Virus record (IMG/VR): IMGVR_UViG_3300045988_069864
DNA length: 64,000 nt
Direction: 5' to 3' (one strand)
Source of the DNA: a virus
How positions within the stretch are numbered: the stretch's first letter is position 1; each line of letters opens with the position of its first letter. This document shows positions 169 through 61,000 of this stretch, one piece after another. Under the pieces are notes generated by a model. It searched no databases. It saw only the letters and a list, made by a program, of their open reading frames with translations, and was not told where the DNA came from. A program made the translations under genes and the position numbers.

Positions 169-176
169 TATTTTTA

Positions 177-204
177 GTCGCGTTAGAAACGTATTCCTTT
201 ATGC
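177..204 (+). promoter_or_regulatory. Bipartite promoter-like motif, copy 1 (GTCGCG-N16-TTATGC)
   Basis: GTCGCG TTAGAAACGTATTCCT TTATGC. Same 6+16+6 architecture as the other copies. Confidence 0.5.
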
Positions 205-263
205 AGAGTAAATTCTGATAACTCTTGCAAGAGTCTTGGCAAAAGCTAGGACTCTTTATTTTT
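205..263 (+). ncRNA. ORF-less short transcript or attenuator candidate with alternative hairpins and a terminator
   Basis: AGAGT 205-209 can pair with ACTCT 221-225. ACTCTTGCAAGAGT 221-234 is a perfect 14-nt palindrome. AAGAGTC 229-235 pairs with GACTCTT 250-256 and is followed by TATTTTT. Confidence 0.3.
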
Positions 264-279
264 CCAGTTTTGACAAAAA

Positions 280-307
280 TTCGCGAAAAAAACAACGACT
301 GTTATGA
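280..307 (+). promoter_or_regulatory. Bipartite promoter-like motif, copy 2 (TTCGCG-N16-TTATGA)
   Basis: TTCGCG AAAAAAACAACGACTG TTATGA. Immediately followed by hairpin AAGAGAA 307-313 / TTCTCTT 320-326 and TTAGCTTTTT. Confidence 0.55.
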
Positions 308-370
308 AGAGAAGATACTTTCTCTTTTAGCTTTTTCAAAAATGATATTTCACGAAAGGAGGTCCACTGA

Positions 371-661
371 ATGTTAGAAAACAAATTCCAAGCAAATCTT
401 ATCAAAGAGCTTAAGAAACTGTTTCCTGGATGCATCGTAATGAAGAATGACTCGAGTTATATTCAAGGCATTCCCGATTTGTTGATTCTCTTCCAGGATA
501 AGTGGGCTTCCCTCGAAGTCAAGAAGAACGCGAGCGCGTCAAAACGACCGAATCAAGAATACTATGTTGGGATGATGGATAAGATGTCATTTTCTCGTTT
601 CATCTGTCCCGAGAACAAAGACGAAATCCTAAATGAACTTGCAAATAAATTCAACAGTTAA
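371..661 (+). CDS. VRR-NUC-like PD-(D/E)xK nuclease (Holliday-junction-resolvase-like)
   Basis: 96 aa. 'GIPDLLIL...ASLEVKK' gives the D...ExK core. SD GAAAGGAGG lies upstream. Confidence 0.55.
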   Translation: MLENKFQANLIKELKKLFPGCIVMKNDSSYIQGIPDLLILFQDKWASLEVKKNASASKRPNQEYYVGMMDKMSFSRFICPENKDEILNELANKFNS

Positions 662-676
662 GGAGAATAGTTAGCA

Positions 677-1234
677 ATGATATTTAACAATCATCGAAAT
701 CTTAACGGTCTACACGCTCCGTTCTCAGCGAGTCAATCCAGTTGGCTTCGCTATGATATTTCAAAAGCAATTGAAGTTTATCAAAACAAGAAAGCTGCAG
801 AGATTGGAACTAAACTCCATGCCTGGGCTAAAGAAACTATAGATCTTGGTATTAAGCAGCCTCGTTCTAAGAAGACCCTTTATGCGTATGTGAATGACGC
901 AATTGGTTTTCGAATGGCGACTGAGGTGGTGTTATATTATTCTGACAGATTCTTCGGTACTGCCGATGCTATTTCTTTCAGAGATAATTTTTTGAGAATC
1001 CACGATTTGAAAACTGGAAAAGGACCTGTACACAGAGAGCAGCTTGAAGTATATGCTGCTCTTTTTTGTTTGGAGTACAGAGTCAAACCTAGTGATATTC
1101 GTATCGAGTTGAGAATCTATCAGAACGATGACTGTGATATTTGGGAACCGTCTCCCGAAGACATCGAGTTCGTTATGAACAAGATTATTACTCTGAATAA
1201 AGAACTTGAACGACTAGATTTTGAGGAGGCTTAG
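677..1234 (+). CDS. PD-(D/E)xK exonuclease-fold protein (RecB/Cas4-like, no Cys cluster)
   Basis: 185 aa. 'GTADAISF...LRIHDLKTGK' is a D...DxK nuclease core. Confidence 0.45.
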   Translation: MIFNNHRNLNGLHAPFSASQSSWLRYDISKAIEVYQNKKAAEIGTKLHAWAKETIDLGIKQPRSKKTLYAYVNDAIGFRMATEVVLYYSDRFFGTADAISFRDNFLRIHDLKTGKGPVHREQLEVYAALFCLEYRVKPSDIRIELRIYQNDDCDIWEPSPEDIEFVMNKIITLNKELERLDFEEA

Positions 1235-1238
1235 TACC

Positions 1239-4187
1239 ATGAATTCTGTTGCGGAAGAAATTAAATCATATTATGGTTCTAATTCCATGAACGATGACGA
1301 ATACCTTGAACATTATGGCATGCCTCGCCGTAGTGGTCGATATCCTTGGGGTTCTGGCGAAAATCCATATCAGCACGGTAATGATTTTCTAAGCCGAATC
1401 GAAAAACTAAAAAGTAAAGGCTGGACCGAGACACCTGAAAACATCAAGAACGAATTTGGTCTGACTACTACTCAATATCGAGCTCAGAAAGCATTGGCTA
1501 AAGATGAACGTCGAGGCTATGACGTGGCGAGAGCTAAATCGTTGGAAAGTGACGGTTTGGGTCCTACTGCCATTGCCAAAAAGATGTCTGAAGAACAAGG
1601 CAAAAACATCAACGAATCTACTATTCGTTCTTGGCTTAATGAAGAGTCCGAAGCTCGTATGAATCAGGCTAAACAGACTGCTGAATTTATTAAGAAACAA
1701 ATCGACGAAAAAGGCATGATTGATGTCGGTGTTGGTGTTGAACGAGAACTTGGTATATCCAAAGAAAAACTTAATCAAGCACTGGCAATTCTCGAAGCTG
1801 AAGGCTATGAGCTTTATGGCGGTCGTGTTCCGCAGGTTACTAATCCTAATCAAATGACCACTCTTAAAGTCATTTGTCCTCCTGGTACTGAACATAAAGA
1901 TATTTATGACTACGAAAATGTACATTCTCTGAATGAATATATTTCTCGTGACGGTGGCGAAACTTACGAAAAGAAGTTCCACTATCCTGAAAGCATGGAT
2001 GCTAGTCGTCTTATGATTCGGTATAAAGAAGATGGCGGTATCGATAAAGATGGTGTTATTGAACTTCGTCGAGGCGTTCCTGATTTGTCTCTTGGTGAAT
2101 CTCGTATCTCTCAGGTTCGAATCCTCGTTGACGGTGACAGATATTTGAAGGGCATGGCTGTTTATTCGGATAATATGCCTGATGGTGTCGATGTTATATT
2201 TAACACCAATAAGTCCAAAGACGTTGCTATGCGAGATGTCCTCAAAAAGATTAAGGATGATCCGGACAATCCCTTTGGTTCCGCTATCAAGGATGTGGAA
2301 AAGGGCGGTCAGTATTGGTATGATCCTAAAACCGGTAAACAAGTATCGGCATCAACTCCTGGTGCTAAGTTGGGTCTGATCAATAAACGAGCTGATGAGG
2401 GCGATTGGTCTGAATGGAAAGATGCACTTCCTGCTCAGTTCTTGTCTAAGCAATCATTGCATTTGGCTAAACAGCAGCTGAACATTGCCGCTTCTGATAA
2501 AGAGGCTGAGTTTGCAGAACTAAGTTCACTTACTAATCCTACTGTAAAGAAGTATTTACTTAATAAATTTGCAGATGAGTGTGATTCAGCAGCTGTACAT
2601 CTTCAAGCAGCAGCTCTGCCTGGTCAGAAGTATCATGTTATATTACCTGTTACTTCTATGAAGGACACCGAAGTGTATGCTCCAAGGTATGAAAATGGAT
2701 CTAAGCTCGCACTTATTCGATATCCTCATGGCGGCACCTTTGAGATTCCTATCTTGACTGTTAATAATAAACAGAAAGACGCCAAAGCTTTGCTTGGCAC
2801 TGATATTTCGGATGCTATCGCTATCAATAGTAAGGTTGCTGAGCGTCTGTCTGGTGCCGACTTTGATGGCGATACCGTTATGTGTATTCCTACTCATGAC
2901 AAAGCTGGCAAGGTCAAGATTACATCTACGAATCCGCTTAAGGGTCTCGAAGGATTTGATCCCAAGACTTCTTATGGTGCTACGAAGACTGTCAAAGATT
3001 CCGATGGCACTGAACATTATCTTCGTAACGGTAAAGAATATAAGATTATGAAGAATACTCAGACCGAAATGGGTAAGATCTCTAATCTTATCAGCGATAT
3101 GACACTGAAAGGTGCTAATGATGACGAGTTAGCTAGAGCTGTTCGTCATAGCATGGTTGTCATCGATGCCGAGAAACATAAGCTTGACTATAAGCAGAGC
3201 GAGATCGACAATAACATCTCCGCTCTTAAGAAGGAGTACCAGAATGGCGGCGGTGCATCCACCTTGATCTCTAGAAGTAAAGGCGAAATCCCGGTTCTTA
3301 AACGACAGGGTAGCCCTATAGTCAATACCAAGACCAAGAACGGAAAACCCAACCCCGACTATGATTCTAGTAAGCCTGAAGGGTCTCTCATATGGAAGAC
3401 TGCCGATGATGTGAATTACCAGTATACAAAAGTAAACAAGAAAACTGGTGAAGTTACTACCATCACCAAGCAACGTACTCAGAAGAGTACTCGTATGGCG
3501 GAGACAACCGATGCACGTACCCTTATCTCGGATGCAGATACCCCCATGGAACGGGCCTATGCGGACTATGCTAACCATATGAAGAACCTGGCCAATAAGG
3601 CCCGCATTGAGGTATCCACTACCGGTAAGATAGCATACTCCTCTAAGGCTAAAGCTACCTATCAGACCGAGGTAAAGAGTCTCAATGATAAGCTGAATAA
3701 TGCCTTACTTAATGCTCCACGAGAGCGACAGGCTACCCTTAAGGCTAATGCAGAGGTACAGCGCAAGGTTGATGCTGCTAAGGCCGCTATCAAAAAAGAG
3801 AACCCCGAGGCCACTAATAGGGAGATTAACAAGCTTGTTCGTAAGAAGATTGATGTTAAGAAGACCGGACAGCAGGCTCTTACTAAATATCGTACTGAGG
3901 CTGGTTCTGTAAAACGTAGTGATCGATCTATTAAGATTACTGATAAGGAATGGGAAGCTATTCAGGCTGGTGCTATTAGTGAGAATGTACTTAAGAAGAT
4001 CCTTGCTAACTCTGACGTGGATAGTCTTAGACAAAGAGCAACGCCTCGTTCTACAACAACGCTTAGTACAGCTAAGATTAATAGAATCAAAGCTATGCGC
4101 GCTTCTGGTAAAACACTTAATGAAATCGCAAATGCGCTTAATGTTTCTGCATCAACAGTTGCAACTTATGTGAAAGGAGTGAATTGA
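1239..4187 (+). CDS. Large multidomain protein with an RdRP/YonO-like two-barrel RNA polymerase catalytic motif and several HTH-like segments
   Basis: 982 aa from ATG 1239 (SD GAGGAGG 1223-1229). 'LALIRYPHGGTFEI...AERLSGADFDGDTVM' (DFDGD at nt 2859-2873) matches the metal-binding loop pattern of beta-prime, YonO and eukaryotic RdRP DPBB domains. C-terminal 'TLNEIANALNVSASTVATYVKG' looks like an HTH. Confidence 0.5.
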   Translation: MNSVAEEIKSYYGSNSMNDDEYLEHYGMPRRSGRYPWGSGENPYQHGNDFLSRIEKLKSKGWTETPENIKNEFGLTTTQYRAQKALAKDERRGYDVARAKSLESDGLGPTAIAKKMSEEQGKNINESTIRSWLNEESEARMNQAKQTAEFIKKQIDEKGMIDVGVGVERELGISKEKLNQALAILEAEGYELYGGRVPQVTNPNQMTTLKVICPPGTEHKDIYDYENVHSLNEYISRDGGETYEKKFHYPESMDASRLMIRYKEDGGIDKDGVIELRRGVPDLSLGESRISQVRILVDGDRYLKGMAVYSDNMPDGVDVIFNTNKSKDVAMRDVLKKIKDDPDNPFGSAIKDVEKGGQYWYDPKTGKQVSASTPGAKLGLINKRADEGDWSEWKDALPAQFLSKQSLHLAKQQLNIAASDKEAEFAELSSLTNPTVKKYLLNKFADECDSAAVHLQAAALPGQKYHVILPVTSMKDTEVYAPRYENGSKLALIRYPHGGTFEIPILTVNNKQKDAKALLGTDISDAIAINSKVAERLSGADFDGDTVMCIPTHDKAGKVKITSTNPLKGLEGFDPKTSYGATKTVKDSDGTEHYLRNGKEYKIMKNTQTEMGKISNLISDMTLKGANDDELARAVRHSMVVIDAEKHKLDYKQSEIDNNISALKKEYQNGGGASTLISRSKGEIPVLKRQGSPIVNTKTKNGKPNPDYDSSKPEGSLIWKTADDVNYQYTKVNKKTGEVTTITKQRTQKSTRMAETTDARTLISDADTPMERAYADYANHMKNLANKARIEVSTTGKIAYSSKAKATYQTEVKSLNDKLNNALLNAPRERQATLKANAEVQRKVDAAKAAIKKENPEATNREINKLVRKKIDVKKTGQQALTKYRTEAGSVKRSDRSIKITDKEWEAIQAGAISENVLKKILANSDVDSLRQRATPRSTTTLSTAKINRIKAMRASGKTLNEIANALNVSASTVATYVKGVN

Positions 4188-4189
4188 TC

Positions 4190-4438
4190 ATGGAAAACGT
4201 TTGTGCATTGACCACAATTGACAATCCTTTTGATCCTTTTGATCAATTCAGTCAATGGTTTCTCTTTGATACAGAAAAAGGTTACAATTCTTGTTCTTAT
4301 CTTGCTCGAATTGCACAAACTTCTGATGAAATGTCTGAACAAGAATACAATCATGAAGTTGAACGAGCAATTGACGAAATTGTCACGATTAATCCTTTAG
4401 GAATTTACAAGAAAGTAACCAAACCCCAGGTAAATTAA
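4190..4438 (+). CDS. hypothetical phage protein
   Basis: 82 aa ORF, ATG 10 nt after AGGAG, abutting the stop of the upstream gene. Confidence 0.5.
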   Translation: MENVCALTTIDNPFDPFDQFSQWFLFDTEKGYNSCSYLARIAQTSDEMSEQEYNHEVERAIDEIVTINPLGIYKKVTKPQVN

Positions 4439-4458
4439 AAAGATGTAGAGCTAATGAT

Positions 4459-4467
4459 GGGGGGGGG
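4459..4467. repeat. G9 homopolymer tract
   Basis: GGGGGGGGG in a roughly 40% GC genome. It can pair with CCCCCTCC about 14 nt downstream. Confidence 0.9.
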
Positions 4468-4624
4468 TCGCTAAAACTACACCCCCTCCTCACATCGCCG
4501 GCCTCCTTGAAAATTCTCCGGAGGGATTTTTCAGAAAAGCATTTATATTTGAGGTAATGACGATACCAGTACGCTTAAGGTCGAGGAAGTTACGAATTGA
4601 TTGAGAATTAGATTGCTATTTTCC

Positions 4625-5919: not shown

Positions 5920-6192
5920 ATGACAGAATGGATGGTTGCTGGGATCGTTGTAACAATTATTGGCGGTGGTTGGGCAGTTATTAAAGCTATTTCCGGTATT
6001 GTTCAACCATTGACAGAACAAATCACAAGACTCAATGATAGCATGAAATCGATCACTAATGATATGAACGAACTTACTGAACGAAACAGTAAAACTCATA
6101 CCCGATTGTTTCAAGCTATCGAAGAGCATGGTAAAATGCTAAGCGAACATGAAATTCGAATTGTAAAACTGGAAGAACATGAAAAGAAATGA
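5920..6192 (+). CDS. small membrane protein with coiled coil (BhlA/UviB holin-like architecture)
   Basis: 90 aa. N-terminal TM 'WMVAGIVVTIIGGGWAVIKAI' followed by a coiled coil. SD GGAGGTGAG. Confidence 0.35.
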   Translation: MTEWMVAGIVVTIIGGGWAVIKAISGIVQPLTEQITRLNDSMKSITNDMNELTERNSKTHTRLFQAIEEHGKMLSEHEIRIVKLEEHEKK

Positions 6193-6209
6193 GTGAAAGG
6201 AGGGATAGT

Positions 6210-6764
6210 ATGAAGTCTTATAATCACTCTGAAGAACTCTATCATCATGGCATCAAAGGTATGAAATGGGGTGTCCGGCGCTATCAGAATTCCGATGGTT
6301 CGCTTACTGCGGCTGGTCAGAAACGATACGCGAGAGATGCTCGAGAAAAAGAATTTAATAAGTATGATTCGTCCACTAAGACATATTACAAAACGTCTAA
6401 GAAAAATGGGCGAAGTGATTTGGAAGCAGATCCTAAACGTTATGCTAAAGAGGATCTATCTCGAACCAAAAAACTTGCTGACGAGTCAGCCAATCTTACA
6501 AGAAATCTAAAAACTGCTAATGATCAGGCTATCAAAAGTAAACCCAAGACTCGAATGGACCTTAGCAAGATGACTGACCAGGAGATGCGGGAAAAGATTA
6601 ATCGAGAATTACTTGAACGACAGTATAACGATGTCTTTAATCCTCCTACTGTTTCTAAGGGTCGGGAGTATGCAAGCAAAGTTCTCGATACTACTGGTAC
6701 TGTTTTGGCTATTACTAGTTCCGCATTGGGAATCGCCCTGGCTATTAAAGATCTTAAGGGGTGA
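6210..6764 (+). CDS. 'ELYHHGxKGxKWG' paralog 1 (basic, C-terminal TM helix), function unknown
   Basis: N-terminus 'SEELYHHGIKGMKWGVRRYQNSDGSLTAAGQKRY'. SD AAGGAGGG. C-terminal 'VLAITSSALGIALAI'. Confidence 0.7.
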   Translation: MKSYNHSEELYHHGIKGMKWGVRRYQNSDGSLTAAGQKRYARDAREKEFNKYDSSTKTYYKTSKKNGRSDLEADPKRYAKEDLSRTKKLADESANLTRNLKTANDQAIKSKPKTRMDLSKMTDQEMREKINRELLERQYNDVFNPPTVSKGREYASKVLDTTGTVLAITSSALGIALAIKDLKG

Positions 6765-6772
6765 TCGTCAAA

Positions 6773-7828
6773 ATGGAATTGTATCACCACGGAATCAAGG
6801 GACAGAAGTGGGGCATTCGCCGGTATCAATATGCTGACGGTACTTATACTCCTGCTGGTAGGAAGCGATACGGCGTTAGTCAAAGTTCAAGTAATGCTCA
6901 ACGTGTTGCAACCATGATGGGTATGAGAGTAAAAGATGTGGTTAACACAGCGAGAACTCAAGTTACCGGAAGACAGTATGTTGATACATATCTGAAACGA
7001 GGTACAACATTTGCAAGAATTCAAACTTCTAAAGAGTTTGAAAATTTTGCATTCTACGCCACTTATAAGAAGGCTGACTCTGATAAGTATATGGGTCTGT
7101 TTGGGAAGAATCTGACTAGTCGTGCAAACAGTGATGCTAAGCGAGCAGAGAAAACAGCCAATGCTTCCGGTAGTGAAGCTGATGCCGCCACAGCTAAGCA
7201 ACTTCGAGATAAAGCTAACAACATGAAAGTTTATCAGCTGAAGCTAGAGACTACTAAGAAACTGAAAGTTCCGTCAGATGAGAATGCTAGTGACATCACT
7301 GCTAATCTACTGAAAGACTCTGAGTTTAAGAAGAATGTTGTTGCTTCAATTGAGGACTCGAAGGAAAAGATGCGTCGTCCTACTCAACAGGTCTTGTTTA
7401 AGCAAGCTCAAAATGCTTTGAATAAAGATCCGAGTAGGATGACAACTTCAGAGAAGGTTGCAGTCTACAAAGCTTTGAATCTGTCTTTGACTAATCACAA
7501 TCAGCAGGAAGTTGCAGCTCAGGCTAAGTTCTACTCGGAACTAAAGAAGAAAGGTTACAATGCACTGCTCGATTATAATGACAAAGATTATTCGAGTTAT
7601 CATGCTAAGCGACCAATGATCGTGTTCGATACTGACTCCGTGAAGCTTCAATCAGTGGCTGAGGCTAATCCGAAGGTCGTGGAAAAGATGTATGCGAAGT
7701 ATAACGCTGAACGAATCATGAAGGAAGTCGGAGCCAATACAATTGGCTATGTCGGCAAACTTGGTAAAAAGACTGTATCCGAATGCGAATCTTATGTGAA
7801 ACAGAAAACTGACAGCTATTTGAGTTAA
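6773..7828 (+). CDS. 'ELYHHGxKGxKWG' paralog 2, function unknown
   Basis: N-terminus 'MELYHHGIKGQKWGIRRYQYADGTYTPAGRKRY'. 351 aa. Confidence 0.7.
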   Translation: MELYHHGIKGQKWGIRRYQYADGTYTPAGRKRYGVSQSSSNAQRVATMMGMRVKDVVNTARTQVTGRQYVDTYLKRGTTFARIQTSKEFENFAFYATYKKADSDKYMGLFGKNLTSRANSDAKRAEKTANASGSEADAATAKQLRDKANNMKVYQLKLETTKKLKVPSDENASDITANLLKDSEFKKNVVASIEDSKEKMRRPTQQVLFKQAQNALNKDPSRMTTSEKVAVYKALNLSLTNHNQQEVAAQAKFYSELKKKGYNALLDYNDKDYSSYHAKRPMIVFDTDSVKLQSVAEANPKVVEKMYAKYNAERIMKEVGANTIGYVGKLGKKTVSECESYVKQKTDSYLS

Positions 7829-7833
7829 TTTTA

Positions 7834-7843
7834 GGGGGGGGGG
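7834..7843. repeat. G10 homopolymer tract forming the SD region of paralog 3
   Basis: TTTTAGGGGGGGGGGTAGATTAATG. Confidence 0.9.
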
Positions 7844-7850
7844 TAGATTA

Positions 7851-8570
7851 ATGAATTCCAATGAACTTTACCACCATGGCGTCAAAGGCATGAAATGGGG
7901 TGTTCGCAAAGATCGATCTAGCTACACATCGACTGGACTTAGAGCTGCTATTGCTAGAAGACAGAATGAAAAAGTAGATGCGAACTTTAAAAACTGGAAA
8001 GAAAATTCTGAGAAAAGGACCAATGCCATTGAGCTCGGCAAGAAAATGAACCAATCCAAGATGGCATACGAAAATAACAAATCCGATAAGACATTTCGGC
8101 AGACGTATAAGCAGGACAGTAAAGCTTATAAAAAGGCTCTTAGAAGTAACACTACTTATCGCAAAGGTCAGATTAAGCAGGAAGTTGGTCAGGATGCTTC
8201 TCGGAAATACCTGAGCGAAGCTAAAAAGATAAAGAAACAGTTGGATTCCGATCCTTCTAATAAGCAGCTCCAAAAGAAGTATAATGATCTGATGAGTAAG
8301 CACGACATTGAACGAGCTAATGCTCGTAGAGCTCCAGAAGTAGCAGCGAACCGGTCTAGAAAGAAAGCTGCCATCAAGAGAGCGATGACAATGTCCGTAA
8401 AAGCTGCAGCTACAACCGCTGTTGTTACTGCTGGAACATACGCGGTAAATAAGTATTTGTCAGATCATAATGTAACTTTGAATGGCAACAATCTTCGAGT
8501 CGATTCTAACATGGTCAACACATTTAGTAATGCTGTCAAAGTTGGTAGCGAAATTTTTAAGTATATTTAA
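7851..8570 (+). CDS. 'ELYHHGxKGxKWG' paralog 3 (basic, C-terminal TM helix), function unknown
   Basis: N-terminus 'NSNELYHHGVKGMKWGVRKDRS'. C-terminal 'SVKAAATTAVVTAGTYAV'. Confidence 0.7.
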   Translation: MNSNELYHHGVKGMKWGVRKDRSSYTSTGLRAAIARRQNEKVDANFKNWKENSEKRTNAIELGKKMNQSKMAYENNKSDKTFRQTYKQDSKAYKKALRSNTTYRKGQIKQEVGQDASRKYLSEAKKIKKQLDSDPSNKQLQKKYNDLMSKHDIERANARRAPEVAANRSRKKAAIKRAMTMSVKAAATTAVVTAGTYAVNKYLSDHNVTLNGNNLRVDSNMVNTFSNAVKVGSEIFKYI

Positions 8571-8607
8571 CATTTGAGTTCCAGATTAAAGGAGGTGACA
8601 ACTCTAA

Positions 8608-9195
8608 GTGGATTCCAGTGAACTTTACCACCATGGCGTCAAAGGCATGAAATGGGGTGTTAGGCGGTATCAGCGTGAAGATGGTACTCGTACTATTGCT
8701 GGACAGAAGCACGCTCAGACATTAACCGGCGGAGTTGCTGGTGTGATCAGAAAGAAGCAGCGCAGTAATGCTGAAAAAGACTTAGCACGAACGATCTCTA
8801 AGCAAAAGCAAGTCAATAGTGAACTGCGTGAACTTCGCGGTTATTCAAAAAACCCAAGTAAAATCGGTCGTTCAAAATTGGCTACTGCTATTCGAAATCA
8901 GCAGATTAAGTCTTTGGAACGGACCAATTCTAAGCTCGACCAGCGTAAAAAAGAGAGCACGAGCGCTTTGAAAGAGCTGAAACAGATCGATGAATATCAG
9001 GCAAAGAAAGCTGCCGACAGAGCGCAGAGGAAACTCGCTAATGCAAAGATCAAAGATCTTCAGAAGAAGTATGGGCGTCTCGAAGATCAGATGACTTATG
9101 GTAAAAACGCCGACACTAAGGCTAACGCTCGTATTCAGAAGCAGATGTCTAGTATCGACACTCAGATTAACAAGCTTAAAAAGTCTACACGATAA
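8608..9195 (+). CDS. 'ELYHHGxKGxKWG' paralog 4 (very basic coiled coil), function unknown
   Basis: GTG start after AAAGGAGGTG. N-terminus 'DSSELYHHGVKGMKWGVRRYQREDGTRTIAGQKH'. Confidence 0.7.
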   Translation: MDSSELYHHGVKGMKWGVRRYQREDGTRTIAGQKHAQTLTGGVAGVIRKKQRSNAEKDLARTISKQKQVNSELRELRGYSKNPSKIGRSKLATAIRNQQIKSLERTNSKLDQRKKESTSALKELKQIDEYQAKKAADRAQRKLANAKIKDLQKKYGRLEDQMTYGKNADTKANARIQKQMSSIDTQINKLKKSTR

Positions 9196-18106: not shown

Positions 18107-18484
18107 ATGATCACATTTAGACAAAAGGGTGACTTTTCTAAGTTAACTCAATACTTGGAAAGAGTAAAGGGGGTCGTTAAATTAAGTCAACTTGATAAAT
18201 ACGGCCAACAAGGTGTAGCTGCCCTTTCGTCTGCGACACCAGTTGATTCAGGATTGACGGCTACTTCTTGGTATTATAAGGTCGAACATCAAAATGGTTC
18301 GACTTCGATTAATTTCTATAATTCGAATACGAACAAAGGGGTCAACATCGCCATCATTTTACAGTATGGTCATGGAACTCGCAATGGTGGCTGGGTTCAG
18401 GGTCGAGATTATATCAATCCTGCAATTCAGCCTATTTTTGATAAGATCGCGAATGATGCATGGGAGGAGGTTACTAAAGTATGA
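18107..18484 (+). CDS. HK97 gp10-family neck/tail component
   Basis: 125 aa. 'GVAALSSATPVDSGLTATSW' is the gp10-family signature. Confidence 0.6.
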   Translation: MITFRQKGDFSKLTQYLERVKGVVKLSQLDKYGQQGVAALSSATPVDSGLTATSWYYKVEHQNGSTSINFYNSNTNKGVNIAIILQYGHGTRNGGWVQGRDYINPAIQPIFDKIANDAWEEVTKV

Positions 18485-34120: not shown

Positions 34121-34125
34121 TTTAC

Positions 34126-34153
34126 TTCGCGTAAAATGCACCTCTTTTTATGA
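34126..34153 (+). promoter_or_regulatory. Bipartite promoter-like motif copy (TTCGCG-N16-TTATGA)
   Basis: TTCGCG TAAAATGCACCTCTTT TTATGA, directly abutting the SD AAGGAGG. Confidence 0.55.
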
Positions 34154-34168
34154 AAGGAGGCAATAAAT

Positions 34169-37802: not shown

Positions 37803-37813
37803 GGGCTCTTTTT
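37791..37813 (+). terminator. intrinsic terminator
   Basis: GAGTCCC TATA GGGGCTC followed by TTTTT. Confidence 0.7.
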
Positions 37814-37814
37814 G

Positions 37815-37842
37815 TTCGCGCGAAAAGCATGTTCATTTATGA
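37815..37842 (+). promoter_or_regulatory. Bipartite promoter-like motif copy
   Basis: TTCGCG CGAAAAGCATGTTCAT TTATGA. Confidence 0.55.
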
Positions 37843-37944
37843 AGAGAGAACAAAAGTGAACATTAGAAAGACAAATTTATAAGATGCGACCGTCTATGCC
37901 TTCGCAAGAAGGAGGGAACACATATCGCACTCTCTTTTCATTTT
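37841..37944 (+). ncRNA. candidate ~100-nt ORF-less RNA closed by stem AAGAGAG/CTCTCTT plus a T-run
   Basis: 37842-37848 pairs with 37930-37936, followed by TTTTCATTTT. There is no SD-preceded ORF. The next motif copy follows immediately. Confidence 0.3.
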
Positions 37945-37970
37945 CGCGAAAAAAACTTGTTCCTTTATGC
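37943..37970 (+). promoter_or_regulatory. Bipartite promoter-like motif copy
   Basis: TTCGCG AAAAAAACTTGTTCCT TTATGC. Confidence 0.55.
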
Positions 37971-37997
37971 AAATAAAACTTTTAGGAGGAATTTATT

Positions 37998-38150: not shown

Positions 38151-38170
38151 GCAAGCTCTTCTTTTTTATT
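38143..38170 (+). terminator. intrinsic terminator
   Basis: AGAGCT GAGCA AGCTCT followed by TCTTTTTTAT. Confidence 0.7.
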
Positions 38171-38197
38171 TCGCGTAGAAAACATCCTCCTTTATGC
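38170..38197 (+). promoter_or_regulatory. Bipartite promoter-like motif copy
   Basis: TTCGCG TAGAAAACATCCTCCT TTATGC. The motif and 5'UTR are near-identical to the copy at 37943. Confidence 0.55.
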
Positions 38198-38225
38198 AGA
38201 ATAAAACTTTTAGGAGGTATTTATT

Positions 38226-38607: not shown

Positions 38608-38823
38608 ATGGATTACATAATTCTCTTTGTTGTCTGTATCTTGGTTAATATTGCGATCAACATTATATTTTTCGATCATAAACCATCCGGAACCCTTCGA
38701 ATCGATCATTCTAATCCTGAGAAAGATATCTATCGTTTTGAAATAAACGATTTTGATGCACTGTCCAAGAAAAAGCGAATCGTCATCAATGTGGATAACA
38801 ATGCTTATCTTTCGCAAGAGTAG
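38608..38823 (+). CDS. small membrane protein (71 aa)
   Basis: SD AAAGGAGGTGGG. N-terminal TM 'IILFVVCILVNIAINIIFF'. Confidence 0.55.
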   Translation: MDYIILFVVCILVNIAINIIFFDHKPSGTLRIDHSNPEKDIYRFEINDFDALSKKKRIVINVDNNAYLSQE

Positions 38824-38874
38824 CATGCACTATTATGGAACGTAAGTTCACATATTTGAAAGGAGTAGTTATTT

Positions 38875-39270: not shown

Positions 39271-39305
39271 AAGAAGGGGCCGTGGAAACATGGTCTCTTC
39301 TTTTT
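39271..39305 (+). terminator. intrinsic terminator
   Basis: AAGAAGGGGCC..GGTCTCTTCTT followed by TTT. Confidence 0.6.
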
Positions 39306-39331
39306 CGCGAAATTTACAGCGTGTATTATGA
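39304..39331 (+). promoter_or_regulatory. Bipartite promoter-like motif copy
   Basis: TTCGCG AAATTTACAGCGTGTA TTATGA. Confidence 0.55.
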
Positions 39332-39480
39332 GAGAAAGCAATGGATAAATGCTGGTGGAAATCCAGCGGTGAGACACGAAGGCGGTGCGCCAAGTAATAA
39401 CTTAATAAAAGATGCACCCTACCGGGCAACGGTTTTCGTTGGGCCGACCCTGAAGTCATTACTTTCTCTCTTTTATTTTT
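39330..39480 (+). promoter_or_regulatory. structured ~150-nt leader: a 13/14-bp closing stem around an internal multi-hairpin domain, followed by a T-run (attenuator, riboswitch-like element or sRNA candidate)
   Basis: GAGAGAAAGCAATG 39330-39343 pairs with CATTACTTTCTCTC 39457-39470, then TTTTATTTTT. Internal hairpins are GCTGG..CCAGC and CAACG-GTTTT-CGTTG. Confidence 0.4.
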
Positions 39481-39508: not shown

Positions 39509-40250
39509 ATGAGATTACGTCCCAGGCTTAGAAAGATTCATTAAAAAGAATGGAGCAACTATTCTAACTGGTATCGGGGTCACCGGAGTTGTGGCTACTT
39601 CAGTTTTAGTCGGTAAAGCTACATTCAAAGCTTCCGAAATTTTAGAAGAAACCAAGAAAGAAAAAGGTGGAAAACTGGAAACTATGGAAGCCGTTAAACT
39701 TGTAGCTCCGGTTTATATTCCGTCAATCGTAATGGGCGCATCTACTATTGCTTGTATTCTTGGTGCGAACGTACTGAACAGACATCATCAAGCAGCTTTA
39801 ACTAGTGCGTATGCGTTTGTTGATCAATCTTTCAAAGAGTACAAAGCAAAAGTTACTGAATTGTATGGTGAAGAAGCCGATCAAGCAGTAGAAGAGGCAA
39901 TCGAGCAAGATCATGTTTCAGGAGAAAACGATCTTCAATTATTCTATGATGAATTATCAGACCGATATTTTGAATCTACGCCATACAGAGTCCAAAGAGC
40001 AGAATACGAGTTGAATAGAAATATGCTTAAGCGAGACTATGCATACTTGAATGAATGGTATGAAGAATTAGACCTAGACATCGTAGAGAACGGCTATGCT
40101 TTAGGTTGGTCTACATTCCAATGTATGGAAATGTACTGGCAACCATGGATTGACTTCGATCACTATTCATTCACCACTGAAGATGGTCGAGAATGTATGG
40201 GACTTTGCATTATCCAACAACCGATCTTAGATTTTGAGGATTATTGCTAA
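39509..40250 (+). pseudogene. 2-TM paralog 1; the SD-preceded ATG (39509) is out of frame by +1 with the conserved body
   Basis: The ATG frame stops at 39542-39544. The body frame is open from 39513 and encodes 'LERFIKKNGATILTGIGVTGVV', homologous to the paralog 2 N-terminus. The only in-frame start is GTG 39591, inside the first TM helix. Confidence 0.5.
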
Positions 40251-40276
40251 TTCGCGATAGAAACTCCTTCTTTAAT
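40249..40276 (+). promoter_or_regulatory. Bipartite promoter-like motif copy
   Basis: TTCGCG ATAGAAACTCCTTCTT TAATGA. Confidence 0.5.
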
Positions 40277-40303
40277 GAAAGATATTTAAAGGAGGAACCT
40301 ACT

Positions 40304-40667: not shown

Positions 40668-41024
40668 ATGAGATACCATTATGAAAAACCAGCTATATAT
40701 TCGTCTAAATATGGTGCTACATATACATGTAACCATCCAGTTTACAATAAATGTACTTTATATTTAATTGACGGGAAAGGATTAGCCGTAATCCAGCAGC
40801 GATGTGACGATGAAAAACGAACCTGGTGGGATGAGATAGATCCATGGTTAACTAATGAATTATATTTACATCCAAGATTCAAAAAATTCTTCGATACTCG
40901 CGCAGGAAAGCATGACGAGGGATTATATCCAACTGTGACCATTAGACAAATAATGTGGGCATTAAGAATGAAACCTTTAAAACGTGAGCGATGGGAAACA
41001 TGTTTTGATAAAAAAGATATTTAG
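40668..41024 (+). CDS. conserved hypothetical phage protein
   Basis: 118 aa. SD GGAGA. 'CTLYLIDGKGLAVIQQRCDDEKRTWWDEID'. Confidence 0.5.
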   Translation: MRYHYEKPAIYSSKYGATYTCNHPVYNKCTLYLIDGKGLAVIQQRCDDEKRTWWDEIDPWLTNELYLHPRFKKFFDTRAGKHDEGLYPTVTIRQIMWALRMKPLKRERWETCFDKKDI

Positions 41025-41025
41025 T

Positions 41026-41053
41026 TTCGCGATGAAAACATTTTCCTTTATGA
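41026..41053 (+). promoter_or_regulatory. Bipartite promoter-like motif copy
   Basis: TTCGCG ATGAAAACATTTTCCT TTATGA. Confidence 0.55.
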
Positions 41054-41085
41054 GAAAATAAACTTTCTGAAAAGGAGAAAGGAAT

Positions 41086-41310: not shown

Positions 41311-41337
41311 GCTAGCAATAGCTCTTCCTTTTGATAT
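41309..41337 (+). terminator. weak intrinsic terminator
   Basis: GAGCTA GCAA TAGCTC followed by TTCCTTTTGATATTT. Confidence 0.45.
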
Positions 41338-41365
41338 TTCGCAAAAATTACAAGCTGTATTATGA
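41338..41365 (+). promoter_or_regulatory. Bipartite promoter-like motif copy
   Basis: TTCGCA AAAATTACAAGCTGTA TTATGA, abutting the SD GAAAGGAGG. Confidence 0.5.
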
Positions 41366-41383
41366 GAAAGGAGGTAATGCTTT

Positions 41384-42361: not shown

Positions 42362-42394
42362 TTGGTTTACACCATATATTCCGTACTATATACG

Positions 42395-42422
42395 TCCGCG
42401 AAATTTGCAAGTTATTTTATGA
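42395..42422 (+). promoter_or_regulatory. Bipartite promoter-like motif copy
   Basis: TCCGCG AAATTTGCAAGTTATT TTATGA, followed by the hairpin GAAGC-AGATA-GCTTC. Confidence 0.5.
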
Positions 42423-42465
42423 GAAGCAGATAGCTTCCGTTATATTTCGAAAGGAGTAATTAATC

Positions 42466-49800: not shown

Positions 49801-50861
49801 TAGCGCTGCTTGATATTGCTTCCATGCATCCTCATAGTCTTATTGCCGAGTGTTTGTTGGGTGTCCAATTCACTAAAGCATTCCGTGATATTGTTGAGGG
49901 TCGAGTGAGTATCAAGCATGAAGCTTGGGATGAAGTTAGCCATATGCTGGATGGTAAGCTTGTTCCTTATATTCAGAAAGTAAAAGATGGAGAACTAACT
50001 TCAAAACAGCTTGCTGATGCACTTAAGACGGCCATTAACTCGGTTTATGGTTTAACATCTGCCAGCTTCGACAATCCGTTCCATGATCCTCGTAACAAGG
50101 ATAACATCGTAGCTAAGCGTGGCGCTCTATTCATGATCGACTTGAAACATGAAGTTCAGAAACGAGGATTCACTGTTGCTCATATCAAGACGGACTCAAT
50201 CAAGATCCCGAATGCTACTCCGGAGATTATTGAGTTTGTTATGGATTTCGGCAAGCGTTATGGCTACACATTCGAGCATGAGGCTACTTATGAACGTATG
50301 TGTCTCGTGAATGATGCTGTTTATATTGCTAAGTATAAAGACGGTAAACATGCTGGAGAATGGACTGCTACTGGTAAGCAATTCGCTGTTCCTTATTTGT
50401 TCAAGACTCTGTTTAGCAAGGAACCTATTGAATTCGACGACGTATGTGAGACTTTCTCGGTTAGCTCTGCTTTATATTTGGACATGAATGAACGTCTACC
50501 CGAAGGCGAACATAACTACCAATTCATCGGAAAGGTTGGTCAATTCTGTCCGATTAAACCTGGCTGCGGTGGCGGTGAACTTGTTCGGGAGGGTGTCGAT
50601 AAGGATGGTAACACCAAATACGATTCTGCTTCTGGTGCCAAAGGTTATCGTTGGCTTGAATCTGAGATGGTTCGAGTTCTTGGTAAAGAGGAAGATATTG
50701 ATCGCTCGTTCTATGGAAAACTCGTAGATGACGCTGTTGAATCTATTTCTCAGTACGGAGATTTCGAACAGTTTGTCGGAGATGATATTTCTAATGAGGA
50801 ACCTCCGTGGAATAATCCAGACGAGCCTTGGAACGAAACAACCGCATTCGATGTGCGATAA
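46884..50861 (+). CDS. replicase fusion: D5/P4-type P-loop NTPase + AEP-like primase module + 3'-5' exonuclease/family-B DNA polymerase
   Basis: 1325 aa, GTG start after AAGGAGGA. Walker A 'YGSMGTGKST'. AEP-like 'VIDFD' and 'SGAGIHLHY'. Exo motifs 'FYDVEVFPN', 'NCRRYDNHML' and 'YCDNDVIATE'. PolB motifs 'DIASMHPHS' (A), 'KTAINSVYG' (B) and 'IKTDSI' (C). Confidence 0.75.
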   Translation: MLDFLLISTRSKKQGVVEVYPKFVIKKSKDLMIRGGDFYAVWIEDRGLWSTDEQDALYLIDQALDAYANDYKQKTSDTVITLHLWDAGSGMIDAWHKYCQKQMRDNFHMLDEKLIFLNTPTNKKDYASKKLNYSLEPGSIDAYEKIISTLYSPEERHKIEWAIGSIIEGDSKTIQKFVVFYGSMGTGKSTILNIIQQLFEGYYSVFDAKALGSSSNSFALEPFKNNPLVAIQHDGDLSKIEDNTRLNSLVSHEMMTVNEKFKSAYSNRFKCFLFMGTNNPVKITDGKSGLIRRLIDVSPSGNKLKPKEYKAAVKQVSFELGAIASHCHEVYLDDPGAYDDYIPVAMLGASNDFYNFIVDNYHIFKKDDGTTLKAAWEMYKVYCDEAKVPFSLSKMKFKEELKNYFWDFKERFVAEDGSRVRSYYTGFRTDKFENEIEDPKIPREEKPWIQFNSTESIFDKECADCFAQYASSKETPSKKWDDVTSTLKDLDTTKLHYVKVPENHIVIDFDIPDEKGEKSLERNLAAASSWPTTYAELSKSGAGIHLHYVYAGDVTRLSRVYDDHIEIKVFNGKSSLRRKLTKCNDIPIATINSGLPLKEDAKLINKDVVQTEKGLRTTIKKCLNKEVHPNTRCNVDFINDILTKAYDSGISYDVSDMKNAVIAFAAQSTNQSDYCIKLVNRMKFKSDEPSVNKEDESADLVFYDVEVFPNLFLVNWKIAGEGKPVVRMINPKPSEIEDLLRFKLVGFNCRRYDNHMLYARMIGYTTEQLYELSQKIINTKKGTKGVFFGEAYNLSYTDIYDFASAGNKKSLKKLEIEMGIHHQELGLPWDQPVPKERWIEVAEYCDNDVIATEAAFNYLKADWTAREILADLAGMTVNDTTNSLTTKIIFGNNKKPQGSFCYRDMSKPVTALDPEVEAFLNMACPEMMQAATDESYLPYFPGYKFEGGKSTYREEEVGEGGYVYSEPGIYFDVALLDIASMHPHSLIAECLLGVQFTKAFRDIVEGRVSIKHEAWDEVSHMLDGKLVPYIQKVKDGELTSKQLADALKTAINSVYGLTSASFDNPFHDPRNKDNIVAKRGALFMIDLKHEVQKRGFTVAHIKTDSIKIPNATPEIIEFVMDFGKRYGYTFEHEATYERMCLVNDAVYIAKYKDGKHAGEWTATGKQFAVPYLFKTLFSKEPIEFDDVCETFSVSSALYLDMNERLPEGEHNYQFIGKVGQFCPIKPGCGGGELVREGVDKDGNTKYDSASGAKGYRWLESEMVRVLGKEEDIDRSFYGKLVDDAVESISQYGDFEQFVGDDISNEEPPWNNPDEPWNETTAFDVR

Positions 50862-50889
50862 TTCGCTAATTTTGCATGTCATATTATGA
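50862..50889 (+). promoter_or_regulatory. Bipartite promoter-like motif copy
   Basis: TTCGCT AATTTTGCATGTCATA TTATGA, abutting the SD AAGGAG. Confidence 0.45.
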
Positions 50890-50904
50890 AAGGAGTGATT
50901 CTAA

Positions 50905-51458: not shown

Positions 51459-51938
51459 ATGAACATTGCATATGCACCTCGCGGTATCCTTCAGATCGAT
51501 GATGCTCGTATCATTTACCGTAACTTTGCAGGCGTTGGTAGTAAGTTTAATCGTGATGGCGATCGCAACTTCGCAGTTATTATTCCTAATCAGGAGATTG
51601 CCGACGAGCTGATTGAAGCCGGTTGGAACATTAAGATCAAGCCTCCCAGAGATGATCAGGACATGCCGTTCATGTATCTGCCGGTTAAGATCAAGTTCAA
51701 TGACCGCGGTCCTAATGTATATTTGGTTACTGGTGACCGTCGTAATCCGCTGAATGAAGAGACTGTTGGCTGCATTGACGACATTGATATTTCCAGTGTA
51801 AATCTGGACATTCGCCCGTATGACTGGGAAGTGAATGGTAAGGCTGGTCGTACTGCGTATCTGCAGGCAATGGAAGTCATTCAGGAGATCGATCGCTTCG
51901 CAGCTCGCTATGCTGAGGAAGAACATCCTGAGGAATAA
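51459..51938 (+). CDS. putative ssDNA-binding protein (T7 gp2.5-like pattern)
   Basis: 159 aa. 'DIRPYDWEVNGKAGRTAYLQAMEV' parallels the 'LVPYKW..G..VKLQL' region of gp2.5. Acidic tail 'AEEEHPEE'. Confidence 0.4.
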   Translation: MNIAYAPRGILQIDDARIIYRNFAGVGSKFNRDGDRNFAVIIPNQEIADELIEAGWNIKIKPPRDDQDMPFMYLPVKIKFNDRGPNVYLVTGDRRNPLNEETVGCIDDIDISSVNLDIRPYDWEVNGKAGRTAYLQAMEVIQEIDRFAARYAEEEHPEE

Positions 51939-51966
51939 ATCGCGAATCCTACTTCTTCTTTAATGA
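51939..51966 (+). promoter_or_regulatory. Bipartite promoter-like motif copy
   Basis: ATCGCG AATCCTACTTCTTCTT TAATGA, abutting the SD AGGAGG. Confidence 0.45.
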
Positions 51967-51981
51967 AGGAGGTTGATATTT

Positions 51982-59646: not shown

Positions 59647-59855
59647 TATTTTCCTGTAATCGGTTCGCTCTTTTTCCACGTATGTGTTCCGAATGCAAAC
59701 GTTATATTTGGATGGAACCTTATAGAAGATCAGACGTTTGGCATGGAGGTTTTGTCGATAGATATTTTAAGGGGGATTACAAGAAAGAAAACATTTGTAA
59801 GAAATGTCTACCTAAATTCTTACCAAAAACTGAGCAAGACACAACCGCGATATAA
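59643..59855 (+). CDS. small Cys-containing protein
   Basis: 70 aa. 'CSECKRY...CKKC'. Confidence 0.5.
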   Translation: MIFSCNRFALFPRMCSECKRYIWMEPYRRSDVWHGGFVDRYFKGDYKKENICKKCLPKFLPKTEQDTTAI

Positions 59856-59871
59856 ACCGATCCTTTAATGA
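59844..59871 (+). promoter_or_regulatory. Bipartite promoter-like motif copy
   Basis: ACCGCG ATATAAACCGATCCTT TAATGA, abutting the SD AAGGAG. It overlaps the end of the upstream CDS. Confidence 0.45.
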
Positions 59872-59887
59872 AAGGAGTTGATTTAAC

Positions 59888-60850: not shown

Positions 60851-60864
60851 TTATTGCTAGGGGT

Positions 60865-60892
60865 CACGCGAGAATTACATATCGTATTATGA
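60865..60892 (+). promoter_or_regulatory. Bipartite promoter-like motif copy
   Basis: CACGCG AGAATTACATATCGTA TTATGA. Confidence 0.5.
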
Positions 60893-61000
60893 GAGAAAAG
60901 AGAATCATGTATTGGTGATGACCTTTGCCCGGTGTGTAAGGGGAATTGTACATTATTACAACAATACAGTAGAACTCGCACTTTTCTCTTTTATTTTTTT
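60891..61000 (+). ncRNA. candidate ~110-nt ORF-less RNA closed by a 9-bp stem AGAGAAAAG/CTTTTCTCT plus a T-run
   Basis: 60892-60900 pairs with 60981-60989, then TTTATTTTTTT. There is no SD-preceded ORF. A second terminator follows. Confidence 0.3.

Follow-up and report, generated by a model that had tools for sequence, protein, structure and literature searches.

A predicted two-barrel RNA polymerase of a temperate gut phage, its N-terminal tag and a promoter-like element found across host phyla

A viral sequence of 64,000 nt in IMG/VR (record IMGVR_UViG_3300045988_069864; hereafter the window) encodes at 1239..4187 a 982-amino-acid (aa) protein that we predict to be a single-chain two-barrel RNA polymerase (RNAP). 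By sequence it is a member of an already predicted family, PHROG 4291, which includes orf75 of phage 1706. Modelling supports two double-psi beta-barrel (DPBB) domains as the catalytic core, and we regard polymerase activity as very probable. Three further points seem to be new: an apparently portable N-terminal tag, a promoter-like element, and the conservation of that element in phages of different hosts. The whole of our favoured explanation, a two-barrel, DNA-templated and sigma-independent transcriptase that uses the element as its promoter and is partly packaged, seems to us evenly poised between right and wrong. Coordinates are those of the window and refer to its + strand unless stated otherwise.

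Fold, active site and relatives of the polymerase

The gene is a single long open reading frame (ORF) that the ORF listing opens at TTG 1221 or ATG 1239. A GAGGAGG Shine-Dalgarno (SD) sequence lies 10 nt upstream of ATG 1239, and identical 982-aa products are called on metagenomic contigs of ~59-64 kb, so we take ATG 1239 as the true start. An earlier note, made from the letters alone, had picked out two motifs in the product as the catalytic loop of a two-barrel polymerase of the RNA-dependent RNA polymerase (RdRP)/YonO type, and its coordinates are exact: RYPHGG at aa 494-499 (nt 2718-2735) and DFDGD at aa 541-545 (nt 2859-2873).

The full-length AlphaFold2 model has a mean pLDDT (predicted local distance difference test) of 77, with aa 1-47 below 50 and predicted to be disordered. 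When this model was compared with the PDB using Foldseek, the best match was Arabidopsis RDR2 (prob 1.0, ~580 columns, E 2e-3), followed by beta-prime/Rpb1 chains at non-significant E-values; against BFVD it matched models named "RNA-dependent RNA polymerase" and RlpA, a DPBB protein. Because the full-length search was diluted (RDR2 reached only E 2e-3), the core, aa 185-770, was modelled alone (pLDDT 76, barrels ~90). It has nine PDB matches at E<=1e-3, and all nine are single-chain two-barrel RNAPs. They include QDE-1 (5fsw_B, E 4e-7), gp62 of Thermus phage P74-26 (8f5m_A, E 7e-7, TM 0.32/0.32, 452 aligned columns) and the maize and Arabidopsis RDR2 proteins (E 9e-7 to 2e-4). Next in rank are Pol IV NRPD1, bacterial beta-prime, crAss gp66 (E 0.037), the AR9 non-virion RNAP and p97-N DPBB domains.

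The first barrel of the model, the beta-like DPBB-B, covers aa ~256-345 (2004..2273) and is marked by its beta-strand pattern and a pLDDT of ~90. The second, the beta-prime-like DPBB-A, covers aa ~461-555 (2619..2903) and carries R494-Y-P496 (nt 2718-2726) and D541-F-D543-G-D545 (nt 2859-2873); the model thus has a barrel around DFDGD, as the earlier note expected. The most conserved helical segment follows barrel A at aa 606-670 (3054..3248; MGxISNLIxDMT ... RHSMVVIDAEKHKL). Conservation was measured in 150 representatives, each 44-64% identical to the query, with a mean identity of 44% as background. Identity to the query is highest in the barrels (means of 0.62 and 0.60) and in the helical segment (0.66). 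R494, P496, D541, D543 and D545 are kept in 150/150 against that 44% background, which makes the RYPHGG/DFDGD pattern more than a chance resemblance; R294 and K304 are likewise kept in all 150 and D271 in 149.

Eight residues are invariant in two-barrel enzymes, and in QDE-1 these are D709, R738, K743, R962, P964, D1007, D1009 and D1011 (PMC2919709). For barrel B, the superfamily criterion is one Asp and two basic residues (D709, R738 and K743 in QDE-1; D837, K979 and K987 in Rpb2). The eight candidates in the window protein occur in the same order as in QDE-1 and YonO. Assignment of the barrel-A residues is secure, and the distance from R-x-P to DxDGD is 45 aa compared with 43 in QDE-1. The barrel-B candidates are D271-G272, R294 and K304-G305, with 10 aa between R294 and K304 compared with 5-8 in known enzymes.

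Several results weigh against the polymerase reading. The barrel-B residues D271, R294 and K304 are putative, proposed from order, spacing, invariance and strand pattern rather than from a superposition. Foldseek TM-scores are low (0.3) and root-mean-square deviations high (7-15 A). Pfam finds no polymerase family in the 982-aa protein, only a C-terminal helix-turn-helix (HTH), and no polymerase model of NCBIfam matches it. Among PDB sequences, phmmer with the single protein found nothing and a 33-sequence family profile found HTH matches only. Profile-profile comparison (hhalign) with the YonO family gives P 4.6e-4 to 5.9e-4 at a probability of 29-33% over 83-128 columns. Our literature search found no enzymology, transcript mapping or accessible virion proteomics for any family member. 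The match to the RdRP family PF05183 that the earlier note proposed to look for is absent from the HMMER Pfam matches of the protein even at E<=1; for the phage family of this protein, an HHpred value of 95.7% to PF05183 has been reported (bioRxiv 10.1101/842583).

Could the protein be a non-catalytic DNA-binding or structural protein that merely keeps a polymerase-like fold? Pfam sees the HTH alone, most GenBank relatives are labelled as HTH DNA-binding proteins only, and the original record of phage 1706 calls its homolog a 'structural protein'. Yet each of the eight active-site positions is unchanged in at least 149 of the 150 representatives, and the barrels are among the most conserved parts, which is unexpected for a decayed enzyme, and we consider this explanation highly improbable.

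The HTH-like segments that the earlier note suspected are real. The N-terminal HTH region (aa ~56-148, 1404..1682) is helical in the model, and the family profile matches it to PDB sequences: a designed HTH repeat protein (8vd6, E 4.5e-5) and, at aa ~92-146, the HTH of the IS5376 transposase (E 0.0035). Transposase- and resolvase-type HTHs match the profile at aa ~92-146 and again at aa ~940-980. There the C-terminal HTH (aa 941-979, 4059..4175) is detected by Pfam as HTH_38 (E 3.4e-6; 27.1 bits against a cut-off of 27). Many relatives have precomputed matches to the sigma-70 region 4 family at the C-terminus; the window protein itself gives a non-significant E of 0.1. A likeness of the C-terminal HTH to the small terminase subunit was dropped, its support being non-significant (Pfam E 0.16; Foldseek E 5-9).

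The transcription system that the earlier note expected to be notable is not a newly recognised one: the family is annotated as 'RNA-dependent RNA polymerase' in PHROGs and in several GenBank records. The phage 1706 protein was listed in 2010 by Ruprich-Robert and Thuriaux as one of five distantly related "YonO-like" families (PMC2919709). Koert et al. (2021 preprint, bioRxiv 10.1101/842583) analysed the same protein, with HTH domains at both ends and a DxDGD loop, as the signature of an actinophage supercluster (clusters BI, AM, AU, AW, DJ, CC and EL) that also takes in the Lactococcus 1706 group and Faecalibacterium phage FP_oengus. The window protein matches phrog_4291, "RNA-dependent RNA polymerase", over its full length (hmmscan E 0, 1193 bits, aa 16-980, profile positions 5-907 of 909); 'RNA-dependent' in this database name is inherited from remote similarity. 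The domain order, namely tag, HTH, two barrels, helical region and HTH, is that of the phage 1706 orf75, FP_oengus ('putative RNA polymerase') and actinophage proteins. We see no essential difference from the PHROG 4291 family; identity to the best annotated relative reaches only 58%. The phage of the window is a temperate one that infects gut Clostridia, whereas the named isolates of the family are mostly lytic actinophages and lactococcal phages.

Full-length relatives (36-58% identity) occur in 251 phage records by tblastn, and in 249 of these the alignment spans 80% or more of the length. Arthrobacter (95), Gordonia (55), Streptomyces (54) and Lactococcus (13) phages dominate; others are from phages of Rhodococcus, Curtobacterium, Microbacterium and Faecalibacterium and from gut or oral siphovirus contigs. 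The records name the protein "RNA-dependent RNA polymerase", "HTH DNA-binding protein" or "hypothetical", and in one case "tail fiber protein". When 1.84 billion representatives were searched exhaustively, 887 clusters (50% identity) matched at E<=1e-30. Furthermore, 310 species-representative bacterial genomes, many of them human-gut Clostridia, encode a relative; cultured carriers include [Ruminococcus] torques, Hungatella hathewayi, Cuneatibacter caecimuris (two copies), Blautia faecis, Enterocloster lavalensis and Lachnospira hominis. For some relatives the contig was binned to Bacteroidota (Parabacteroides, Muribaculum, Tannerellaceae), Collinsella or Kiritimatiellae (L030, L063, L072, L073, L080, L083 and L089). 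As most of these contigs are phage-sized (~35-98 kb; L072 22 kb), they are likely mis-binned free phage contigs; alternatively, phages that carry the polymerase may have a wider host range.

The polymerase gene is the third in a conserved operon. It is preceded by genes for a VRR-Nuc-like endonuclease (371..661; phrog_93, E 4e-15) and a Cas4/RecB-like PD-(D/E)xK exonuclease (677..1234; phrog_3953, E 3e-73; Pfam DUF2800 and PDDEXK_1) and followed by one for a conserved 84-aa protein (4184..4438; phrog_4303, E 8e-35). An ORF of ~80 aa lies 3' of the polymerase gene in all annotated relatives, and the same operon order, seen in Lactococcus, Rhodococcus, Arthrobacter, Streptomyces, Gordonia and Curtobacterium phages, ends there at the right genome end. 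A G-run/C-run tract at 4455..4500, inside a 338-nt non-coding gap, has the look of a cos region. Since relatives have the gene at the right end of their genomes and a 3' cos overhang is annotated in ReqiPepy6, the mature genome probably ends here, right after the polymerase operon. The gap is followed by a small ORF and by genes for an HNH endonuclease, a connector protein, four DUF7211 proteins, TerL (9210-10955) and virion proteins, and the polymerase gene's location just upstream of the packaging genes, as first described, holds. Circularised or as a prophage, the genome would place the polymerase gene directly upstream of a ~30-kb block of virion and lysis genes.

A serine integrase (34651-36105, - strand; phrog_95, E 4e-129) and a CI-like repressor (36114-36500, - strand) form the only leftward block, flanked on one side by the lysis end of the virion module and on the other by the rightward early genes. 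These two genes indicate a temperate phage, and relatives are prophages in Lachnospiraceae and Ruminococcus genomes, in agreement with the temperate Firmicute phage assumed at the outset.

YonO is likewise a single-chain two-barrel enzyme of a temperate Firmicute phage, a DNA-dependent RNAP for the late genes of the Bacillus prophage SP-beta (PMC5467207), and yonO, like the window gene, lies directly upstream of a terminase/portal late block. A six-sequence YonO-family alignment has the invariants D249-G250, R266...K271-G272, R492-x-P494 and D535-x-D537-x-D539, in the same order as the candidate residues of the window protein. The hhalign alignment is in register (RYPH/RSPH, DFDGD/DxDGD, MGxVSNLITDM/IGEISNNITKIW) and confined to barrel A and the following helix. 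There is no tblastn match between the two proteins in either direction, and the family profile against the single YonO sequence gives an hhalign probability of 0.1%. The HTH modules and N-terminal tag of the window family align with no part of YonO, which ends in a Cys-rich tail, is not known in virions and has no known promoter. The two-barrel fold around DFDGD and the R-x-P...DxDGD register are supported; the kinship with YonO is remote only. As an aside, the YonO match is split in two by an inserted ORF in many SP-beta relatives (e.g. MT601272 Goe11, KY030782 phi3T and ON107264 BUCT083). The pieces are annotated yonO_1/yonO_2 and a GIY-YIG nuclease lies at the insertion in BUCT083, which suggests that a mobile intron or an intein-like element has inserted into the polymerase gene.

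Among phage structures the core model fits P74-26 gp62 best, with no detectable sequence similarity. This protein and P23-45 gp64 (PDB 8F72, 8F5M) are small single-chain two-barrel DNA-dependent non-virion RNAPs, and gp64 reads phage-specific promoter motifs for early and middle genes (PMC10770324). P74-26 gp62 has 592 aa, without HTH extensions or tag; the virion enzyme of the P23-45 system is a second polymerase, fused to the tape measure protein. QDE-1 and RDR2 are the best fold matches (450-530 columns) and share the eight active-site residues, the barrel-B ones as candidates; they make dsRNA for silencing, a different biology. The crAss-like phi14:2 gp66 is also two-barrel but much larger (2180 aa), and the N4 virion RNAP (vRNAP) is a T7-like right-hand polymerase of 3500 aa rather than a two-barrel enzyme. 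The virion-packaged gp66, N4 vRNAP and P23-45 gp96 are carried in the particle and ejected with the DNA, whereas packaging of the window protein is conjectural and its phage is temperate.

We favour a DNA over an RNA template because YonO and P23-45 gp64 are DNA-dependent and the carrier is a temperate dsDNA phage, and transcription of phage genes from DNA is likely. The other possibility is an RNA-templated enzyme, or one that synthesises primers or R-loops with the neighbouring recombination and replication genes. The closest solved folds do include the cellular RdRPs QDE-1 and RDR2, and the gene closes a replication/recombination module, always adjoining two nucleases (VRR-Nuc and Cas4-like), with a single-strand annealing protein in phage P092. 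QDE-1 itself is reported to have both RdRP and DNA-dependent RNAP activity (PMC9508822). However, P74-26 gp62, an equally good match, comes from a family of DNA-dependent phage transcriptases, as does its homolog gp64, and YonO, too, was once called RdRP-like and is a DNA-dependent transcriptase. The phage already encodes a primase-polymerase, and promoter recognition on dsDNA is a better fit for two or three sequence-specific HTH modules. We therefore hold an RNA-templated or priming enzyme to be improbable.

A promoter-like element and its candidate readers

The window holds 15-17 copies of a ~30-nt element with identical geometry (consensus nnTTCGCGnnnnnnACnnnnnCnnTTATGnAA; core pattern TTCGCG-N8-ACA-N5-T(T/A)T(T/A)ATGA(A/G)). 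Every copy is on the + strand, and none falls within the virion block at 4.7-34 kb. The - strand has one loose regular-expression match and none above the threshold of a position weight matrix (PWM), which was built from window copies only. Two copies precede the polymerase operon: copy 1 at 175..210 (PWM 30.8) and copy 2, AATTCGCGAAAAAAACAACGACTGTTATGAAGAGAA, at 278..313 (36.4), 58 nt before the first gene. Between them is a terminator-like hairpin with a 12-bp stem plus a T-run (229..256). The next copy is at 34124..34159 (35.4; SD 2 nt past its ATG). The rightward early region starts with the copy at 37813..37848 (35.3), followed by those at 37941..37976 (37.9), 38168..38203 (36.9), 38809..38844 (28.6), 39302..39337 (33.8; preceded by a terminator-like repeat of family D16 at 39285), 40249..40284 (36.9), 41024..41059 (32.6), 41336..41371 (31.5; SD 4 nt past its ATG) and 42393..42428 (32.2). 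Further on, one lies just after the primase-polymerase gene at 50860..50895 (31.6; SD 2 nt past its ATG), and others at 51937..51972 (30.3; SD 1 nt past), 59842..59877 (30.2; SD 2 nt past) and, more weakly, 60863..60898 (23.0).

Repeats with a hairpin plus T-run (TAGGAGATCTGAAACATGGTCTCCTATTCTTTTATATTTG) also occur, as identical 44-mers at 53801-53844 and 61039-61082 and as related copies at 52122, 52198, 38437, 51116 and 39285, several of which have a promoter-like element after them. These repeats resemble intrinsic terminators closing short early/middle units.

The element is conserved between Clostridia and Actinobacteria phages, and a Lactococcus phage shares its core; we found no description of it in the literature. 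Across 80 independent Clostridia prophage loci (1.02 Mb) the PWM has 166 matches on the + strand and 4 on the - strand, in 78 loci, and 94 of the matches lie in the 1-kb interval directly upstream of the endonuclease-exonuclease-polymerase operon. The counterpart of copy 2 is found in 78 of the 80 loci and in MT835495, KeaneyLin and ReqiPepy6. Arthrobacter phage KeaneyLin, with a 46% identical polymerase and a host of another phylum, has eight copies of TTCGCGTAAATTACAnGGGCTATAATGAGA, seven at the start of the early region and one in the gap just upstream of the polymerase operon (element coordinates outside the window: L103 16770-45902; L017 22968-44436; prophage loci L023-L102). Rhodococcus phage ReqiPepy6 has a copy directly upstream of the endonuclease gene. 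Lactococcus phage P092 has ten copies of the core, TTTTACA(T/C)ACCCTATAATGA(A/G)A, at the early-region start and upstream of the block that ends with the polymerase. The SP-beta control gave weak scattered matches only. Every carrier phage has, within its set, a copy upstream of the polymerase operon. The idea that the element does not travel with the polymerase was rejected on the 80-locus scan and the KeaneyLin and P092 alignments.

So, which polymerase reads the element? That it is the promoter of the window polymerase we hold tentatively, at just short of even chances. Parts of the element that do not belong to a sigma-A promoter (TTACA-N5, ATGAGA, and a TTCGCG at just 14 nt from the AT-rich box) are conserved in Clostridia, Lactococcus and Actinobacteria phages alike, and the -11 A and -7 T of the sigma-A -10 box are missing from the Clostridia version. 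Reading TTCGCG and TATGAA as -35 and -10 boxes with a 17-nt spacer was dropped, as relatives put the AT-rich box 14 nt from TTCGCG. In 5 of 16 window copies the SD begins 1-4 nt past the element's ATG. A sigma-70-type start, 6-8 nt past the -10 box, is disfavoured because it would destroy the abutting SD, while initiation at the ATGA or beside it, in the manner of T7-type promoters, would leave it intact. Among ~10 supercluster-wide proteins, the polymerase is the only transcription or DNA-binding candidate (bioRxiv 10.1101/842583).

We propose that the 982-aa protein would act as a catalytically competent single-chain two-barrel polymerase on DNA, without sigma, and that its own HTH modules at both ends would recognise the ~30-bp phage element. 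RNA synthesis would start at or just after the element's ATGA. The element would serve the early and middle units that it precedes, along with the polymerase's own operon. After cos joining, or in the prophage, a unit starting at 278-313 would span the endonuclease, exonuclease, polymerase and small ORF, and no terminator is predicted between this unit and the ~30-kb virion/lysis block. The polymerase would then drive the middle and late programme, reading through its own gene towards the virion block.

Some observations count against this scheme. The KeaneyLin and P092 copies contain a perfect TATAAT, which means that the host sigma-A polymerase could read the element there. MT835495 has two copies, only upstream of the polymerase operon, and the portions of phage 1706 that were scanned, all outside 30-46 kb, hold none. 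A prophage must start its programme without a virion-delivered enzyme, and with the polymerase operon behind the same element, host polymerase or read-through has to seed it.

The main rival is a YonO-like, non-virion polymerase for late genes only. Here the host sigma-A RNAP, perhaps with a phage factor, would read the elements and make the early/middle transcripts, that of the polymerase operon among them. The phage polymerase would then use some promoter beyond its own gene to transcribe the ~30-kb virion and lysis block as one long operon, and the tag would serve another purpose, such as binding a shared partner. In its temperate Firmicute phage, YonO does transcribe a single operon of 37 late genes whose start is just downstream of yonO, the two genes are placed alike relative to terminase and portal, and the virion block at 4.7-34 kb is without an element copy. 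The perfect TATAAT of the KeaneyLin and P092 copies points the same way, as does the need of a temperate phage with a CI-like repressor to begin from host polymerase upon induction. Nonetheless, conservation of the non-sigma-A parts across host phyla is hard to reconcile with this model, as are the missing -11 A and -7 T of the Clostridia element and the SD that abuts it in 5/16 copies. No candidate late promoter or repeat was seen downstream of the polymerase gene, and the model leaves the phage 1706 'structural protein' label and the sharing of the tag unexplained. We rate it as unlikely, though far from negligible.

The N-terminal tag and the virion

The tag of the polymerase, L-x-HYG-x-P-R-R-SGRYPWGSG-x-N-P-Y-Q, covers aa 21-47 (1299..1379) and is invariant in alignments A1 and A2, the latter made of the window protein and 32 relatives at 38-90% identity. 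Across phyla L-x-HYG-x-PRRSGRYPWGSG-x-NPYQ is unchanged, yet it is predicted to be disordered. Residues G27, S32, G33, R34 and G38 are kept in 148/150 representatives.

The earlier note saw in the N-terminus a loose likeness to four paralogs at 6.2-9.2 kb. These four (6189-9195) do exist and have the N-terminal Pfam DUF7211 motif in common. They are a small basic protein with the tag ELYHHGIKGMKWGVRRYQ (6189..6764; E 1e-10; tail 20% K+R), a DUF7211-tagged protein (6761..7828; E 3e-4, below the Pfam cut-off; A6 hidden Markov model (HMM) E 1e-26), and two DUF7211-tagged basic proteins (7851..8570, E 2e-11; 8608..9195, E 2e-10, tail 27% K+R), the last immediately upstream of TerL. We found no account of DUF7211 in the literature. 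The likeness itself is weak when polymerase and DUF7211 tags are compared directly (hhalign P 0.024 over 11 columns, non-significant); bridging sequences and the positional interchange of tags speak for it.

Besides the polymerases, an HMM of the polymerase tag picks up two small Lys/Arg-rich ORFs flanking TerL in the related phage MT835616 (E 6e-15 and 1e-12). At these TerL-flanking positions the window and MT835495 have small basic proteins with the DUF7211 tag ELYHHG[IV]KGMKWGVRRYQ. Intermediate tags, L-x-HYG-[VT]-x-GMKWG-x-RR, occur in P092 gp07 and gp08 and in the MT835495 ORF 11112-11630, and internal DUF7211-type tags in ReqiPepy6 gp013 and 1706 orf7, both encoded between connector and TerL. 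Of the 80 Clostridia prophage loci, 79 encode a polymerase with the polymerase tag. Sequence reaches far enough downstream in 63 of the loci, and 60 of these have small DUF7211-tagged ORFs 1-5.5 kb beyond the polymerase. The resemblance between the polymerase and DUF7211 tags is one of functional and positional equivalence with bridging sequences. The polymerase tag as a portable module, interchangeable with the DUF7211 tag of small basic TerL-adjacent proteins, seems to be new.

Small Lys/Arg-rich proteins with a short Gly/aromatic/basic tag, either DUF7211 or the polymerase-type variant, are encoded between connector and TerL/portal, as in the window and in L018 (1059-1670 and 3432-3989). 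The tag, usually N-terminal, appears twice in 1706 orf7 (L021 2501-3889) and internally in ReqiPepy6 gp013 (L022 10681-12276). Such placement would be expected if modules were fused, or if the proteins were cleaved at the tag.

Does the tag carry the polymerase into the virion? The phage 1706 record (EU081845) uses 'structural protein' only on orf6, 7, 11, 12, 13, 17, 20, 21, 71 and 75 and words its bioinformatic guesses as "putative ...". Both orf75, the polymerase homolog, and the tagged orf7 are called 'structural protein', and the selective use of this label suggests detection in virions. Also so labelled is orf71 (L020 659-1012), a 117-aa protein of the replication/lysis region without either tag. 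Two points temper the virion reading. The label on orf75 is a database annotation whose experimental basis we have not read, and the 'structural' labels of ReqiPepy6 and JGI records are copies of the 1706 record. The ReqiPepy6 note was for that reason rejected as independent support. Virion proteomics for the family was not found in the literature.

The disordered N-terminal tag probably directs part of the polymerase into the capsid in our scheme; on its own merits, packaging through the tag is a possibility that we entertain with some doubt. The fullest version, with a capsid-targeting tag common to the polymerase and the DUF7211 proteins, a polymerase ejected with the DNA and HTHs that read the co-conserved element, we consider rather unlikely.

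Other features of the genome and wider meaning

Two gene types of the window are common to the actinophage and lactococcal relatives: a 1325-aa primase-polymerase fusion (46884-50861; phrog_4210) and an HNH endonuclease domain joined to a helicase (54817-56520; phrog_59 plus phrog_62). A tape-measure-like gene (ORF 18481-23835, 1784 aa) has in-frame tandem repeats at 20812-21443 and 21589-22028, with four copies 183 nt apart and three copies 150 nt apart, respectively. The window also contains phrog_2152 paralogs of unknown function (41588-42361 and 43985-44911), a 39-nt tandem duplication (61501-61578) and a 47-nt repeat, TTGCCCAGTTTGCAATTTTCA..., in two neighbouring small ORFs (61831-61877 and 62147-62193).

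Single-chain two-barrel RNAPs are taken as models of the ancestor of all cellular RNA polymerases. To our knowledge few have been studied, namely YonO, crAss gp66 and P23-45 gp64 and gp96. The family described here is large (887 clusters), and its prediction is already published. The candidate cross-phylum promoter, the built-in DNA-binding modules and the candidate packaging tag make the role of the enzyme directly testable. Should the link between element and polymerase prove true, the two would form a compact orthogonal polymerase-promoter pair for Gram-positive hosts. If both the capsid tag and the reading of the element were true, these phages, even temperate ones of the gut, would have a widespread (~900 clusters), self-contained and sigma-independent transcription system with a known promoter.

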